A DNA stretch of 64,000 bases from Microgenomates group bacterium (GTDB lineage: Bacteria; Patescibacteriota; Microgenomatia; PFEM01; JBNASD01): positions 15,162 to 79,161 of the forward strand of contig JBNASD010000001.1 of assembly GCA_049720225.1 (NCBI GenBank). The letters are read 5' to 3'. Both the position numbers and the translations under genes were made by a program. This document shows positions 5,744-37,348 of the stretch, one piece after another (the first letter of the stretch is position 1; each line of letters begins with the position of its first letter). A model generated the notes under the pieces. That model made no database searches, had not been told where the DNA came from, and saw only the letters and a program-made list of their open reading frames with translations.

Positions 5744-6529
5744 ATGGTTAAAACTAAAAAAGCAAAAACAGAAGAAAAATTAGAAGAAAAAGCAGAAAAA
5801 ACTTCCTCTTCGGAAATTTCTCTTAAATCATTATTGGAAGCAGGTTGTCATTTTGGTCATCAGGTTCGTCGTTGGCATCCAGCAATGAAACCTTATTTAT
5901 TTGGCGTTCGGGGAGGGGTTCATATTTTTGATTTAGTAAAAACCAAAGAAGGATTAGAAAAAGCCTGTGAATTTATGAAAAAATCCGCTCAAGAAGGGAA
6001 AAGGATTGTTTTTGTGGGTACCAAAAGACAAGCAAAGGCGGTAATTACTGAAGAAGCCAAAAAAATTGGTGTTCCTTATGTGACCGAAAGATGGGTAGGA
6101 GGAACAATTACTAATTGGGAGCAGATTAAAAAAAGCATTGATAAATTAGTTAGAATGAAAGAGGAGCAAGATAAAGGAGAATATAAAAAATATACCAAAA
6201 AAGAGCAAATTCTTCTTAATCGAGAAATTCTTCGTCTAGAAAAGCTTTATGGAGGATTAGTAGGTTTAGAAGATAAACCAGAAATAATTTTTGTCGTTGA
6301 TGTGAGAAAGGAAGATACGGCAGTTGAGGAAGCAAAAAAGAAGGGAGTGACTATTGTTGCTTTGGTTGATTCTGATTCCAATCCTGAGGGAATTGATTAT
6401 GTCATTCCCGGAAATGATGATGCGGTTGGGTCAATAAGATTTATTGTCGGAAAAATCGCCGAAGCAGTTAAAGAAGGAAAAGAAATAAAAGAAAAGAAAG
6501 GAGAAAAAAATGAAAAAAGTAAGTCTTGA
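5744..6529 (+). CDS. rpsB: 30S ribosomal protein S2 (with ~20-aa Lys/Glu-rich N-terminal extension)
   Basis: The core [19 protein letters not shown]...IFDL is typical of S2. Confidence 0.9.
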
Positions 6530-24906: not shown

Positions 24907-25590
24907 TTAGCCTACGATTTTCTCCAAACTTCCATTCAAAATATTTTCCAAATCATACCAGGATTTTTTCAGTCGATGATCGGTTACCCGATTTTGGGGG
25001 AAATTATAAGTACGAATTTTTTCTGCCCTCATTCCTCGGCCAATAGCCGAGCGATAACCAGCAATCGTTTGTTCTTTTTTAAGCTCTTCTGCTTCCCAAA
25101 TTTTACTTCGTAAAAGCTGTAAGGCTAATTCTCGATTTTGAAATTGTGATCTTTCTTGTTGACAAACAACCGTAATTCCCGTTGGTTTATGAGTTAATCT
25201 TACAGCGGAATTAACCTTTTGAACGTTTTGTCCTCCCTGAGAAGAGGCGCGGAAAAATTGCCAATCCAAATCGGCGGGATTAATTTTAATTTCTTCTTCT
25301 TTAATTTCCGGTAAAACAACAACCGTTGCGGTTGAAGTGTGAATTCGGCCATATCTTTCCGTTTTGGGAACTCGTTGAACTCGGTGGACTCCTGATTCGT
25401 TTTTTAGTTTTTGATAAATATCAGGAGGACCGCTGATTTTTAAAATTCCACCACTTAAAATTTCTGCCTTCCATCCCTGTTTTTCGGCAAAGCGATAATA
25501 CATTCTTAACAAATCATCGGCCCAAATTTTGGCTTCTTCACCACCGACACCAGGACGAATTTCAATGATGACAAAGCGAGAATTATTCAT
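24907..25590 (-). CDS. class I peptide chain release factor, RF1-like (PxT = PKT, GGQ), lacking N-terminal domain 1
   Basis: 227 aa. It aligns to E. coli RF1 from about residue 105 to the end (EIRPGVGGEEA..., GVHRVQRVPKTE, SSQGGQNVQK, RTYNFPQNRVTDHR). There is no room for an N-terminus, because rpmE ends 10 nt upstream. Confidence 0.75.
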   Translation of the reverse strand: MNNSRFVIIEIRPGVGGEEAKIWADDLLRMYYRFAEKQGWKAEILSGGILKISGPPDIYQKLKNESGVHRVQRVPKTERYGRIHTSTATVVVLPEIKEEEIKINPADLDWQFFRASSQGGQNVQKVNSAVRLTHKPTGITVVCQQERSQFQNRELALQLLRSKIWEAEELKKEQTIAGYRSAIGRGMRAEKIRTYNFPQNRVTDHRLKKSWYDLENILNGSLEKIVG

Positions 25591-29233: not shown

Positions 29234-30542
29234 AATTCCTCCGCATTCTGACGAGGCAGAAGCGTCGGTTTTAGGGGCAATTTTGATTGATAAAGATGCG
29301 ATTGTCGCAGTAGCGGAGTTTCTAAGACCCGAGCATTTTTATAATCAACAAAACGGCTTAATTTATGAAGCCATTCTTCATCTTTACGAAGAGAGAAAAC
29401 CAATTGATTTGGTGACTTTAAAAGATGAGCTTAAAAAAAGAAAAATCCTTTCTAAAGTTGGCGGTTCTTCTTATTTAGCAGAGTTAGTTAATCAAGTTCC
29501 CACTGCTGCCCATGTTGAAGAATATGGATTAATAATTAAGGATAATTACACTAAAAGAGAGTTAATTTCTGCGGCTGCCCGAATTACCGAAGAGGCTTTT
29601 GATGAAGGAAAAGAAGCCCGTAAGGTTTTAGATGATGCTGAGCAGGCAATTTTTGCTTTATCACAAAAACATTTAAAAGAAGGATTTTTGCCGGTTAAAG
29701 AGATTCTAGCAGAAAGTTTTGATCGTTTAGATGAACTTCATAAAACCGCGGGGGGATTAAGGGGGGTTCCTACCGGATTTAAGGATTTAGATGATACTTT
29801 GGCAGGAATGCAGGATTCTAACCTTTTAATTTTGGCTGCCCGTCCGGGTTTGGGAAAAACTGCTTTTGCCCTAGAAATTGCTCGTCATGTAGCGGTAAAA
29901 GAAAAATTACCCGTTGGTTTTTTCTCTTTAGAAATGAGTAAAGAAGAGTTAGTAGACAGACTTTTGGTTTCTCAGGCGGATATTGATGCTTGGAAGTTAA
30001 AAACTGGTCGTTTAAGCGAGGATGATTTTACGCGATTGTCGGAAGCGATGGGAATTTTGGCGGAGGCGCCACTATTTATTGACGATACTCCCGCTTTAAC
30101 TATTTTAGAGATGAGAACTAAGGCTCGTCGGTTAATGGCGGAACATGGGTTGAGGTTATTAATTGTTGATTATTTACAATTAATGAAAAGTGTAAGACAA
30201 TTGGAAAATCGCGTTCAGGAAGTTTCGGAAATTTCGATGGGATTAAAAAATTTAGCTCGGGAGTTAAAAATTCCTGTTTTGGCAATTTCTCAACTTTCTC
30301 GAGAGGTGGAAAAAAGAGGAAAAAAACGACCTCAACTGGCAGATTTAAGAGAGTCCGGATCAATTGAACAAGATGCGGATGTAGTGATGTTTTTATGGCG
30401 GGAAGACGATGATGATTTAGAAAACGTAGAATTAGAGGTTGCCAAACACCGTAATGGACCATTAAGAAGGATAAAACTTCGCTTCCGCGGTGATCGGATT
30501 AAATTTTATGGAGTAGAGACAAAAAGGAGTGAGGAAGAATAG
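29220..30542 (+). CDS. dnaB: replicative DNA helicase DnaB
   Basis: DnaB N-terminal domain (EASVLGAIL); Walker A ARPGLGKT; RecA fold. TAG stop at 30540..30542. Confidence 0.9.
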   Translation: MPEVKIPPHSDEAEASVLGAILIDKDAIVAVAEFLRPEHFYNQQNGLIYEAILHLYEERKPIDLVTLKDELKKRKILSKVGGSSYLAELVNQVPTAAHVEEYGLIIKDNYTKRELISAAARITEEAFDEGKEARKVLDDAEQAIFALSQKHLKEGFLPVKEILAESFDRLDELHKTAGGLRGVPTGFKDLDDTLAGMQDSNLLILAARPGLGKTAFALEIARHVAVKEKLPVGFFSLEMSKEELVDRLLVSQADIDAWKLKTGRLSEDDFTRLSEAMGILAEAPLFIDDTPALTILEMRTKARRLMAEHGLRLLIVDYLQLMKSVRQLENRVQEVSEISMGLKNLARELKIPVLAISQLSREVEKRGKKRPQLADLRESGSIEQDADVVMFLWREDDDDLENVELEVAKHRNGPLRRIKLRFRGDRIKFYGVETKRSEEE

Positions 30543-30628
30543 TGCCGCGGGAGGGAGTCGAACCCTCACGGCCTTTAAAGACCACGGGTTTTTGAGACCC
30601 GCCTGTCTGCCAATTCCAGCACCGCGGC
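30543..30628 (-). tRNA. tRNA-Leu (anticodon CAA), type II with long variable arm; CCA not encoded
   Basis: Manually folded. Acceptor GCCGCGG/CCGCGGC, D-loop with GG, anticodon stem CGGGT/ACCCG with loop CTCAAAA, a variable-arm hairpin, T-arm GAGGG-TTCGACT-CCCTC, discriminator A. Confidence 0.8.
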
Positions 30629-30664: not shown

Positions 30665-31114
30665 CTATTTTAAAAGAAGAACCAAAAGAATAATAACGAT
30701 TTGAGGAAGAATTCCCACTAAAAATTTCGCTTTTCGATGGAAATAGTGTGAATGAAGAATTTCAATTTGGGAAAAAGGGAAGATTCGCCAATTTAAAAAT
30801 AAAACAGGAAATTCTAATAAATCAGGTAAAATACTAAAAAAAATCCCTAGCCAAAGCCAGGGATTTAAAGGAAGGTTTTTTTGAAAGATAAACCAACAAA
30901 TAATTAAAGCAACTGCCAAATCAAATCCTCCCAAAAGAAAATTAATAATTTTCGATCTTTTTTTAAAACCAATTCCTAAATCCCAATGGGGAATCCAGTC
31001 TAAGAAAAAATGAAAAATAAAAAGAAGGGGAGAGGTAAGCCAGGGATTTAAAGGGGGATTACTAATTTTTGAGGCCACTAACCCGCCTACTAAAGAATGA
31101 GTGACTACCAGCAT
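30665..31114 (-). CDS. hypothetical polytopic membrane protein (possibly DUF457-like membrane-bound hydrolase)
   Basis: 149 aa, very hydrophobic, with an N-terminal THSLVG motif. Confidence 0.35.
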   Translation of the reverse strand: MLVVTHSLVGGLVASKISNPPLNPWLTSPLLFIFHFFLDWIPHWDLGIGFKKRSKIINFLLGGFDLAVALIICWFIFQKNLPLNPWLWLGIFFSILPDLLEFPVLFLNWRIFPFSQIEILHSHYFHRKAKFLVGILPQIVIILLVLLLK

Positions 31115-35494: not shown

Positions 35495-36355
35495 TTTTTA
35501 AAGAAGGGTTAAGGTGGGGAAGAGGGGAGGGGTTTCCAATAATATCCTATAATTATTTAATAACCCTATAGTATTATATTTTCACAAAAAATTTTCTTTA
35601 TTTTCACAAAATAGCACTAAAAATTTTTATTTGCCAATAATATAGTTTGATATACTTGACTTTGTGGATAACTTTAGAGGGGAGTTAACTTAAAAATAAA
35701 ATTTAATTTTTTAACAAATTATTCTCTTCCTTTAAATTGAAATAAGAATTAATAAAGATAATAATTTCCCTTTCCCTTTTCTTAGATAGCTCTCTTTAGC
35801 AATGACGCACAATATATCTTTTGCGACATTTTTAAGCAGAGTGAGGAAGAGGGGTTTAAATTTTTAAGTTTTAAAAATTATAAAAATAAAAATTTGAGTT
35901 TTATTTTTAACTAAAACCTTTTAAAAGTTTCCTTAATTCTCTTTAATAAACTATTAAGGTTTTTTCATTTTTTAGATTTCTTATAACTTCTCCCGGCTAA
36001 ATTAAAAAAATTAAAAACGAAAAATGGAGCTGTTGTCTTAAAACAGATGGTTCTTTTAAAATACCAAAATATATCCTTTTTTTAAAAAAGCCGTTTTTGG
36101 GGCTTTAGCGGGTTGGTTGAATTTGCAATAAAAACAAAAAAATATCGCTTCGGAGAAAAAGTTTCTTTTTTAATCAAGATTTTCTCTTTTTCCTTCAATC
36201 TAGATCAAAATAATTCCTGCTTAAGAGAAGTGCTTTATATTAATAGTTTTAAATAAAAATAAGCCCTAAAAAAATAAATAATCCCTAAAAAATAATCAAT
36301 CGCATATAAGAGATATAAAACAAAAATTTTTTAAAATTTATGATGTCGCACAATA

Positions 36356-36384
36356 TTGACAAGCAAATTTTAGGGGTTTATAAT
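36356..36384 (+). promoter_or_regulatory. perfect sigma70-consensus promoter TTGACA-N17-TATAAT for the recombinase gene
   Basis: TTGACA 36356..36361, a 17-nt spacer, TATAAT 36379..36384, then 7 nt to the ATG at 36392. There is no Shine-Dalgarno, so the mRNA is probably leaderless. Confidence 0.5.
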
Positions 36385-36391
36385 TAAATTT

Positions 36392-37348
36392 ATGTCTCAA
36401 CTTAAAGAAAAAACAAAATGGGAAAAATTAATCGACAATTTTTTAGAGGATTTACAAATTTCTCGTCACTACTCTCCCCTAACAATTCGCAATTATTATC
36501 ATTATCTTTCGCGGTTTTCTTTATGGATTAAAAAAAATTTTCCTAAAGTTGAACCAGAGACACTTACTTTAGAAATATTGAAAAAATACCGATTGTTTTT
36601 AGCCAGATTTATCGCACCAAATGGCTCTCCCCTTTCTAGTAGCACTCAAGCTTATCATGTGATAGCTTTACGGTCATTTTTAAAGTGGTTAATTAAGAAC
36701 GATGTTAAGACCTTATCTCCAGAAAAAATTGATGTTCCTAAGATGGGGGGAAGAAGTTTAAAATTTTTGACTACCGAGCAGGTGGAAAGATTACTCTCCC
36801 AACCAAATATTTCTAATTTTCGGGGATTAAGAGATAAGGCAATTTTAGAGGTTCTTTTCTCAACGGGATTACGAGTTTCTGAATTAGTAAAGCTAAATCG
36901 CGACCAAATAGATTTAAAAAGAAGAGAATTTGGGGTAATTGGAAAAGGAGGGAAAGCGCGGGTTGTTTTTCTTTCTCCGCGGGCAGTGAAATGGCTTAAA
37001 AAATATCTAGAGAGTCGATCAGATTCGTGGTCTCCTCTTTTTATTCGGACTTCAGGAAAAGGAATTGCTAAATTTTCCACCGCTGAAGGAGAAAAAATGA
37101 GACTTTCTGTTCGTTCAGTCCAGCGAATTGTGGAAAAATATGTTAAAAAAGCGCGGCTACCAATAAAAATTACCCCTCATGGTTTACGACATAGTTTTGC
37201 TACTGATCTTTTAATGGCGGGAGCAGATCTTCGAAGCGTTCAGGAACTTTTGGGACACAAAAATATTGTCACGACTCAAATTTATACTCATGTGACCAAT
37301 CGGCAGTTAAAGCAAATTTATGATACTTTTCATGGAAAGGGAAAATAA
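36392..37348 (+). CDS. tyrosine site-specific recombinase, XerC/XerD-like
   Basis: 318 aa. N-terminal core-binding domain; catalytic R (GLRVSEL), HGLRHSFAT, LLGH, and the Tyr in TQIYTHV. Confidence 0.85.
   Translation: MSQLKEKTKWEKLIDNFLEDLQISRHYSPLTIRNYYHYLSRFSLWIKKNFPKVEPETLTLEILKKYRLFLARFIAPNGSPLSSSTQAYHVIALRSFLKWLIKNDVKTLSPEKIDVPKMGGRSLKFLTTEQVERLLSQPNISNFRGLRDKAILEVLFSTGLRVSELVKLNRDQIDLKRREFGVIGKGGKARVVFLSPRAVKWLKKYLESRSDSWSPLFIRTSGKGIAKFSTAEGEKMRLSVRSVQRIVEKYVKKARLPIKITPHGLRHSFATDLLMAGADLRSVQELLGHKNIVTTQIYTHVTNRQLKQIYDTFHGKGK

Follow-up and report, generated by a model that had tools for sequence, protein, structure and literature searches.

A probable dif locus with converging polar motifs upstream of a Xer recombinase gene in a Microgenomates chromosome

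Positions 35495-36391 of a 64-kb stretch of DNA from a Microgenomates group bacterium (hereafter, the window) form a gene-poor tract that we read, with a probability of roughly 85%, as the dif locus of a Patescibacteria (Microgenomates-like) chromosome. The tract extends from a stop codon, that of a DUF5656 membrane-protein gene, to the start codon (ATG) of an XerC/D-family tyrosine recombinase gene (xer), and it harbors a 28-bp site that has, as far as sequence can tell, most of what is expected of a dif: arms arranged around a short centre, an XerC/D-family gene encoded with it and polar motifs converging upon it. The site and its presumed enzyme are located as follows.

35802..35829, plus strand: dif-type Xer site of 28 bp, made of left arm ATGACGCACAA (35802-35812), centre TATATC (35813-35818) and right arm TTTTGCGACAT (35819-35829)
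36392..37348, plus strand: xer, an XerC/XerD-family tyrosine recombinase of 318 aa and the presumed cognate enzyme, with Pfam Phage_integrase and SAM-like N-terminal domains

The gene order LytR_C, YebC, DUF5656, gap, Xer(+), GyrA(-), GyrB(-) is common to about 30 genome loci, with a gap of 600-2000 bp that is poor in open reading frames (ORFs) in most of them. Nearly every one of these syntenic gaps carries ATGTCGCACAA-N6-TTTTGCGACAT, placed 280-1100 bp (sometimes more) upstream of xer and in an orientation that is constant across loci bar one; in the window the distance is 590 bp. Comparison of 30 distinct genome sites shows G3, C5, A8-A11, the first central base T and TT.T.CGAC to be invariant, and the last central base to be C in 29 of them. 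Variation at the four inner central bases yields 10 distinct hexamers among the 30 sites, and the information content outside the 28 bp is only about 0-1 bit. Near-invariant arms, a variable centre and uninformative flanks are the anatomy of a tyrosine-recombinase core site. The consensus dif for the group is RYGTCGCACAA-TNNNNC-TTTTRCGACRY, and some relatives have the inner core ACAA-TGTATC-TTATG, close to the E. coli dif inner core, ATAA-TGTATA-TTATG.

Although nearly identical, the arms are asymmetric throughout (CACAA on the left versus CAAAA on the right, read inward). The arm pair L9-R3 is C-T or C-A, without Watson-Crick pairing, at 30/30 sites, and arm positions 2 and 7 vary by transitions, independently on either arm. 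Asymmetric arms with an unpaired L9-R3 are more readily explained by an oriented protein site than by selection for a hairpin, and they bear directly on one candidate explanation of the earlier note on this DNA, an unannotated non-coding RNA. Such an RNA would take the palindrome as a hairpin and the purine box with a T-run as a terminator, and some pairing is indeed available: the site arms can pair with each other, a short hairpin and T-run follow the site in several relatives, and CCCTTTTCTT (35775-35784) can pair with AGGAAGAGGG (35845-35854) in the window. We nevertheless regard this explanation as extremely improbable, given the mispaired and independently varying arm positions, the lack of conservation in the arm-adjacent sequence, the upstream boxes that change order and orientation between lineages, and the occurrence of the site in hundreds of unrelated contexts. 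Folding is not in excess either (z-scores of -0.46 and -0.03 for the whole tract on its two strands, and -1.46 for the DNA fold around the site). Covariance scans against Rfam 15 gave no match at gathering thresholds in the whole window and 11 relatives, and permissive scanning of the tract (E<=10) returned only noise (SNORD27, plastid psbA, E 0.3-10).

Copies of the dif-type site were sought with the pattern GTCGBACAAT-N4-CTTWTRCGAC, copy number being checked over the 64 kb and over the stored stretches of other contigs. The window has one full site, and the pattern matched contigs of IMG/VR (42) and of metagenomes (more than 120), each with one full copy per stored stretch. About one-third of the metagenome matches share the window synteny and the remainder have unrelated flanks. 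Copies of 'TCATGTCGCACAAT...' between xer and gyrA in relatives were also considered as further sites and were treated as coincidence, since they lie inside a minus-strand coding region and vary with 3-nt periodicity.

The xer gene is the only one of its kind within the window. Its product matches Pfam Phage_integrase (E 3e-44) and shares 55-70% identity with proteins from Shapirobacteria, Gottesmanbacteria, Daviesbacteria and other Patescibacteria metagenome-assembled genomes (MAGs); exact-protein look-ups for Xer and DUF5656 returned no record. The NCBIfam models score it at 255 bits for XerC and 245 bits for XerD, both under the equivalog cut-offs, at 219.5 bits for XerA (cut-off 220) and at 139.5 bits for XerS (cut-off 267), the last over the C-terminal half only. 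In the PDB it is matched best by XerD, an XerD-FtsK fusion and an XerC-like recombinase, while XerH structure is matched weakly (E 7e-11). By its NCBIfam scores, then, Xer would be placed in none of the XerS, XerH and XerA families, and the near-identical arms suggest a single recombinase, as in the XerH and XerA systems.

Polar motifs converge on the site from both sides. Those nearest to it, resembling the FtsK-orienting polar sequences (KOPS) of E. coli, are:

35513..35532, plus strand: G/A-rich tract with KOPS-like motifs pointing toward dif, AGGGGAG at 35523-35529 and GGGGAGGG at 35524-35531
35678..35684, plus strand: last AGGGGAG on the top strand ahead of dif, the left arm lying 118 bp downstream
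36474-36480 and 36627-36633, minus strand: first two bottom-strand AGGGGAG, inside the plus-strand xer gene, on the right side of the polarity switch

In the window, the E. coli KOPS GGGNAGGG has 9 top-strand and 0 bottom-strand copies left of the site and 1 and 7, respectively, right of it; for GRGNAGRG the same counts are 25/1 and 1/18. An unbiased scan returned AGGGGA as its top 6-mer (30/1 left, 4/18 right) and AGGGGAG as its top 7-mer (11/0 left, 0/9 right). All 20 copies of AGGGGAG point to the site, against 7.95 +/- 2.28 copies expected, a 2.5-fold over-representation. This polarity is independent of gene strand: the left-hand copy at 31026 lies in a minus-strand gene, and 7/9 right-hand copies are on the non-coding strand of plus-strand genes. 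Having been derived from the window, AGGGGAG was then tested on independent loci, with top:bottom counts of 39:0 left and 1:47 right in genome loci, 43:1 and 4:40 in syntenic metagenome contigs, and 76:1 and 9:56 in non-syntenic contigs. The convergence is replicated in about 190 other loci, and the density of the polar motifs increases toward the site.

The polarity switch falls between 35684 and 36474. The tract contains the final two top-strand copies (35523 and 35678), of which the one at 35523 falls within the segment that had been described as a possible G-quadruplex, and a GA-rich block also follows the DUF5656 stop codon in relatives. Short, G-rich, over-represented and switching polarity at dif, AGGGGAG has the sequence properties of KOPS and of the SpoIIIE recognition sequences (SRS). 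Convergence of polar sequences has served as a functional definition of the zone where dif is active (PMC3025954). The purine boxes flanking dif were considered as KOPS and rejected as a group, being mostly in the same orientation on both sides and mostly not AGGGGAG; of the purine tracts around the site, only the left-hand ones qualify.

Other contigs sharing the site indicate, indirectly, that it is a point of recombination. In non-syntenic contigs, unrelated flanks are joined exactly at the site. Contigs L094 and L107, for instance, are 100% identical over the 90 nt compared right of the site and unrelated to the left (50% ungapped identity), and together with L093 and L095 they show all four combinations of left and right flanks. 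One right flank was found joined to three left-flank classes. Six contigs of ~10 kb hold a second copy 5.1-5.9 kb away in direct orientation; its left arm is good, its centre is again TATATC and its right arm is degenerate. In these phage arrays the degenerate copy is found to the side of the full site's left arm, with the same central hexamer, and the enclosed 5.1-5.9-kb units encode a Zot-like morphogenesis ATPase (Pfam PF05707, PHROG 197) along with small inovirus-style genes. The same element end adjoins the pseudo-site in one contig and the full site in another, which points to tandem arrays.

Inovirus-like units between a degenerate and a full site are found in the IMG/VR contigs L093, L095, L101, L105, L107 and L110. 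Each of these units combines the Zot-like ATPase with proteins of 77, 97 and ~390 aa, and part of a second element is seen alongside in several of the contigs. The units appear to be phages exploiting the host Xer. Phages that integrate at dif in Vibrio and Neisseria, among the integrative mobile elements exploiting Xer (IMEX), look like these arrays. Inoviruses have been reported in hosts of the Candidate Phyla Radiation (CPR; PMC6813254).

From the known dif/Xer/FtsK system we infer how the dif locus would operate here. The Xer protein encoded 590 bp downstream would bind both near-identical arms and exchange strands across the 6-bp centre, resolving chromosome dimers. A FtsK-type translocase would be steered to dif by the polar motifs, the G-tract holding one of the last two on the left side.

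Several observations weigh against reading the tract as a dif locus of this kind. The recombination evidence comes from the contigs of other organisms that share the site and not from the window genome itself. A scan of window proteins turned up no ftsK gene, so that the reader of the polar motifs is a presumed one. The left arm of the window, ATGACGCACAA, has A at position 4 (35805), where 29/30 sites have T; this A may reflect natural variation or an error of sequencing or assembly, and the half-site at the xer promoter (see below) retains the T. That half-site is itself absent from 47/79 loci. A further objection comes from nucleotide skew. The GC skew at four-fold sites does not flip at the window site, with values of 0.04 left and 0.03 right in plus-strand genes, and of -0.28 left and -0.32 right in minus-strand genes. 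Across the syntenic group, the overall GC skew only falls from 0.129 to 0.034 across the site.

The negative values are shared by GyrA and GyrB across relatives. Expression level is unlikely to be their cause, given that the minus-strand genes of the window are functionally mixed (RF2, L31, HisRS, RNase III, NusB, RecG, PheT and gyrase). AT skew at four-fold sites in the window does look flipped at the site. In non-syntenic contigs, GC skew flips at the site from +0.044 to -0.051, AT skew flips too, and the top-strand share of long-ORF bases goes from 68% on the left to 21% on the right. As the GC skew is unflipped, the site is probably not where replication forks meet in the window genome, and the simplest reading of the skew suggests a meeting point >=28 kb rightward of dif. 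In B. subtilis, too, some tens of kb separate dif from the fork-arrest sites. A similar offset would explain the unflipped skew here. Kono et al. also argued that termination need not occur at dif (PMC3025954).

The tract as a whole is largely what the earlier note had described, a long, AT-rich, non-coding stretch upstream of a tyrosine recombinase. Its GC content is 24.3%, versus ~29-39% per 2-kb window elsewhere in the 64 kb, and it is the largest gap between ORFs of >=100 aa. Only two short ORFs (38 and 47 aa) are present in it. A hidden small gene was rejected because an all-against-all comparison of the stop-to-stop ORFs (>=30 aa) in all gaps yielded no family; the sole matches were in the near-identical pair L008/L010 or across the 28-bp site itself, and no conserved small ORF was seen.

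All of the features previously picked out by eye exist, at coordinates that are exact or off by <=2 nt. The G-tract GGTGGGGAAGAGGGGAGGGG spans 35513-35532, its end having been placed 2 nt too far. The direct repeat TTTTCACAAAA x2 is part of a 13-nt exact repeat, TATTTTCACAAAA, at 35577-35589 and 35599-35611 (spacing of 22 nt). The 13-mer pair is found as TGACGCACAATAT at 35803 and TGTCGCACAATAT at 36344, the only two matches in 64 kb at <=1 mismatch, with 0.01 expected by chance and two matches reached in 0/100 shuffles. The first of these 13-mers is within the imperfect palindrome at 35802-35829, our dif-type site, and the second overlaps the -35 of xer, its last base being the first base of the TTGACA promoter box. 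The orphan Shine-Dalgarno-like GAGGAAGAGGGG is at 35843-35854 and belongs to a 13/14 direct repeat of 35514-35527. A spacer without repeat conservation would have been plain intergenic DNA; here the palindrome, the TTTTCAC boxes and the G-tract are conserved in relatives, which marks them as selected features and not chance.

The second 13-mer corresponds to a separate element at the promoter of the recombinase gene:

36343..36356, plus strand: arm-type half-site ATGTCGCACAATAT, made of the consensus left arm and 3 further nt, lacking a right arm and adjoining the xer -35 box
36356..36384, plus strand: xer promoter, TTGACA-17 nt-TATAAT, a 12/12 match to the sigma-70 consensus

A plus-strand half-site is found between -200 and +20 of the xer start in 32/79 loci, with 0.016 expected per locus. 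This is a ~25-fold enrichment, and only 2 minus-strand half-sites are present in the same interval. The half-site adjoins the -35 box in the window and in L002, L001 and L009. In L006, L008, L010, L012, L011 and L036 its CAMAAT is the -10 element, 17-18 nt after TTGACA and frequently 6 nt upstream of the ATG. Several relatives carry the half-site in its inverted right-arm form (GTCGCAAAAT). It is to this second motif copy alone that the suggestion of a cis-regulatory region plausibly applies. Repression by Xer of its own gene through the arm copy at the promoter is our best guess, for which we would give somewhat less than even odds.

Two further observations concern these half-sites. In L008 (~5975-6025), L012 (~5940-5990) and L006 (~5975-6020), xer starts ~6 nt after the half-site -10 (TTGACA-17/18-CAMAAT), a spacing that suggests leaderless xer mRNAs. 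In three loci of other CPR lineages (L041, L013 and L048) no full site was found near xer; inverted arm-type half-sites flank the gene instead, on the minus strand upstream and on the plus strand downstream, and L041 has a tandem pair.

The regulatory view might be extended to the whole tract, with the palindrome and the half-site as operators of an ordinary transcription factor, or of a Xer acting as repressor only, and the tract as just the xer regulatory region. The strand-specific overlap of the half-site with the xer -35 or -10 agrees with this, as does the make-up of the palindrome from two 7-bp half-sites (TGTCGCA/TGCGACA) 14 bp apart. An operator is hard to reconcile with a full site standing 280-1100 bp or more from xer, and with 127 other contigs in which the site occurs without a detectable Xer homologue in the stored flanks (one of them with a 29%-identical Xer-like match only). 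Neither would it account for the exact reassortment of flanks at the site, for phage-like units bounded by full and degenerate copies, or for polar motifs, GC skew and gene orientation that switch there. We find this explanation highly improbable.

The earlier note had also raised the possibility of an integrated element, now decayed, with att/dif-like sites. Of this proposal, the recombinase site of dif type is strongly supported, by its conservation, the flank reassortment, the IMEX-like prophage arrays and the convergence of polar motifs; the decayed element is not supported. In such an account, 35830-36342 would be the remnant of an IMEX integrated at dif and the half-site its left-over junction. 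Full and degenerate copies do stand in direct orientation, as in the inovirus-like arrays of other contigs, two half-sites precede xer in some relatives, and the segment 35830-36342 is conserved only with the closest relative, L002. The geometry, however, differs: in the window the degenerate copy is on the right-arm side and shares only TAT of the centre, whereas in the arrays it is on the left-arm side and shares the same hexamer. Inverted right-arm half-sites in several relatives cannot be produced by simple integration, the position of the half-site is tied to the xer promoter across deep lineages, and the tract has no element genes or conserved ORFs. An IMEX remnant is therefore improbable in our view. 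An IMEX junction is likewise an unlikely origin for the half-site itself, given the opposite side of the degenerate copy in the arrays and the inverted right-arm forms in relatives.

Upstream of the dif-type site, the tract holds a conserved box array. The same four box types follow DUF5656 in nearly all syntenic loci, and in the window the array and the neighboring purine box comprise:

35536..35672, plus strand: conserved box array
35536-35543, plus strand: box CCAATAAT
35546-35553, plus strand: box CCTATAAT
35565-35572, plus strand: box CCTATAGT
35579-35586 and 35601-35608, plus strand: box TTTTCACA, two copies
35638-35646, plus strand: box TAATATAGT, a 1-mismatch variant of the relatives' TGATATAGT
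35648-35656, plus strand: box TGATATACT, a 1-mismatch variant of the relatives' TGATATAGT
35663-35672, plus strand: box TGTGGATAAC, a perfect DnaA box when read on the minus strand
35841..35854, plus strand: purine box GTGAGGAAGAGGGG (the orphan Shine-Dalgarno-like motif), 12 nt 3' of the right arm

In relatives, the array directly after the DUF5656 stop comprises a GA tract, two TGATATAGT boxes 10 bp apart and 2-3 CCTATA[AG]T boxes, together with TGTGGATAAC and two TTTTCACR boxes 22-23 bp apart. There is no exact copy of TGATATAGT in the window. The TGTGGATAAC box is always on the same strand and is exact in 13/31 gaps examined. The box order follows three lineage-specific arrangements, with one sub-unit inverted in some, and this variable order and orientation argues for protein-binding DNA and not RNA. 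Since CCTATAAT, CCTATAGT, TTTTCACA and GTGGATAAC have no other occurrence in the 64 kb and are confined to the tract, the idea that the boxes are general promoter motifs was rejected.

A DnaA box in an AT-rich spacer raises the question of a replication origin, or of a locus that binds or titrates DnaA. The perfect, strand-conserved TTATCCACA in 13/31 gaps, with 1-mismatch versions in most others, speaks for it, and so do boxes that are helically phased direct repeats (TTTTCAC at 22-bp and TATAGT at 10-bp spacing) and a four-fold-site GC skew of the same sign on both sides of the tract. In other contexts too, the density of perfect DnaA boxes is ~7-fold higher at <=500 bp from the site (0.153 vs 0.021 per kb in non-syntenic contigs). 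The tract, however, has one perfect DnaA box, its sole match at <=2 mismatches; there is no dnaA gene in the window, no minimum of cumulative GC skew at the tract, and the polar motifs and flanking genes converge rather than diverge. We consider an origin or a titrating locus very improbable.

Within the dif reading, DnaA or some other protein of the cell cycle could, for instance, bind the array, which would link replication status to dimer resolution or fork arrest. The boxes are unique to this place in the window, they accompany dif in three arrangements, DnaA boxes are enriched near the site and the skew is unchanged through it. It is from these facts that we speculate that the array is a dedicated dif-associated control element, and that in Microgenomates dif and polar convergence are uncoupled from the meeting point of the forks, a combined proposal that we regard as doubtful.

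Most syntenic loci have a GGRGRAGWGG-type box that follows the right arm by 14-19 nt. In the window, the 13/14 direct repeat GTG[G/A]GGAAGAGGGG at 35514-35527 and 35841-35854, with a spacing of 327 nt, brackets the box array together with dif, and L024, L025 and L027 have similar paired GA blocks around this interval.

Among known systems, the closest is the dif-XerCD-FtsK (SpoIIIE)-KOPS/SRS system of E. coli and B. subtilis. Shared with it are a 28-bp site with 11-6-11 organization, an inner core similar to ATAA-TGTATA-TTATG, and G-rich polar octamers, including the E. coli GGGNAGGG, that converge and become denser near the site. The window differs in having nearly identical arms, a single xer seen, next to the site, a Xer under the XerC/XerD equivalog cut-offs, no FtsK and AGGGGAG as its strongest polar word.

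In streptococci and lactococci, difSL is an atypical 31-bp site immediately upstream of xerS. Recombinase gene and site form an adjacent module there as well, also with two similar arms, but the site discussed here is a 28-bp dif-like one, 590 bp upstream (280-1100+ bp in relatives), and the XerS score is below its cut-off. An XerS/difSL module was rejected on these grounds (139.5 vs 267 bits, over the C-terminal half; 28-bp site 590 bp away). That system has a single, FtsK-dependent recombinase and its own KOPS-like word (PMC3384302).

Proximity to the archaeal XerA/dif system is seen in the XerA model score (219.5 bits, cut-off 220), whereas the match to XerH structure of the XerH/difH system is weak (E 7e-11). 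XerA acts without FtsK. The site described here differs in lying where KOPS-like motifs converge. Both XerH/difH (Helicobacter, Campylobacter) and archaeal XerA/dif are single-recombinase systems with near-palindromic dif sites (PMC3325230).

The IMEX (CTXphi, VGJphi, TLCphi and the gonococcal island) resemble the Zot-like-encoding units, some of them in tandem, that lie between degenerate and full copies in other contigs; no such element is in the window, and the half-site there is not arranged like an IMEX junction. With the plasmid sites cer and psi, the window lineage shares a box array that looks protein-binding, 130-200 bp from the left arm. The accessory sequences of cer and psi are on the same side as the array. 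The differences are that the array is 570-930 bp away in other lineages, with its internal order changed, and that no ArgR, PepA or ArcA-type boxes were recognised. Chromosomal dif sites need no accessory sequences.

The full-text literature was searched for a Patescibacteria or CPR dif site, for KOPS and for part of the left-arm sequence, and no relevant paper came up; the published dif surveys found predate or omit the CPR. The 2011 survey covered 16 phyla (PMC3025954). The dif/Xer/FtsK-KOPS system is textbook biology; the value of the locus is that it provides this radiation of small-celled, mostly uncultured bacteria with a dif consensus, a polar word and a Xer-exploiting phage class. Used with AGGGGAG or GGGNAGGG, the dif consensus could locate the terminus and orient replichores in fragmentary MAGs, and the consensus and the polar word could flag misassemblies. 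They could also reveal phages and plasmids exploiting the host Xer, and hence virus-host links for organisms that cannot be grown. The DnaA-box array beside dif and the half-site at the xer promoter are testable leads on the last step of chromosome segregation in a minimal bacterium.

Some minor observations complete the description. Relatives with another box order have a ~300-nt non-coding element between the array and dif (L006:5195-5475, L007:5090-5425, L051:4850-5230, L015:5160-5525, L008:4755-5050, L030:5400-5745 and others). It is built of 3-4 units of AGCCTCAAAA...TTTAGAGC-N8-GCTCTAAA, which form a hairpin and usually end in AACCCGAAA. The element has no counterpart in the window and no Rfam match, and may be a new repeat or RNA element. 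In a separate family of nine contigs, otherwise diverse in sequence (L167, L218, L163, L137, L082, L184, L078, L178 and L108), AAGTTATCCACA, a perfect DnaA box, stands 198-317 bp right of the site; these may be plasmid or phage replicons with the origin next to a dif-like resolution site.

Elsewhere in the window, ARAGORN placed a tRNA-Leu(CAA) at 30542-30628 on the minus strand, yet the whole-window Rfam scan at gathering thresholds was empty even for the tRNA model. The release-factor ORF (RF-1/PCRF) at 24907-25590 on the minus strand encodes 227 aa only and matches the PCRF profile from position 98 onward; it is probably prfB with the usual programmed +1 frameshift, its N-terminal part being in another frame.

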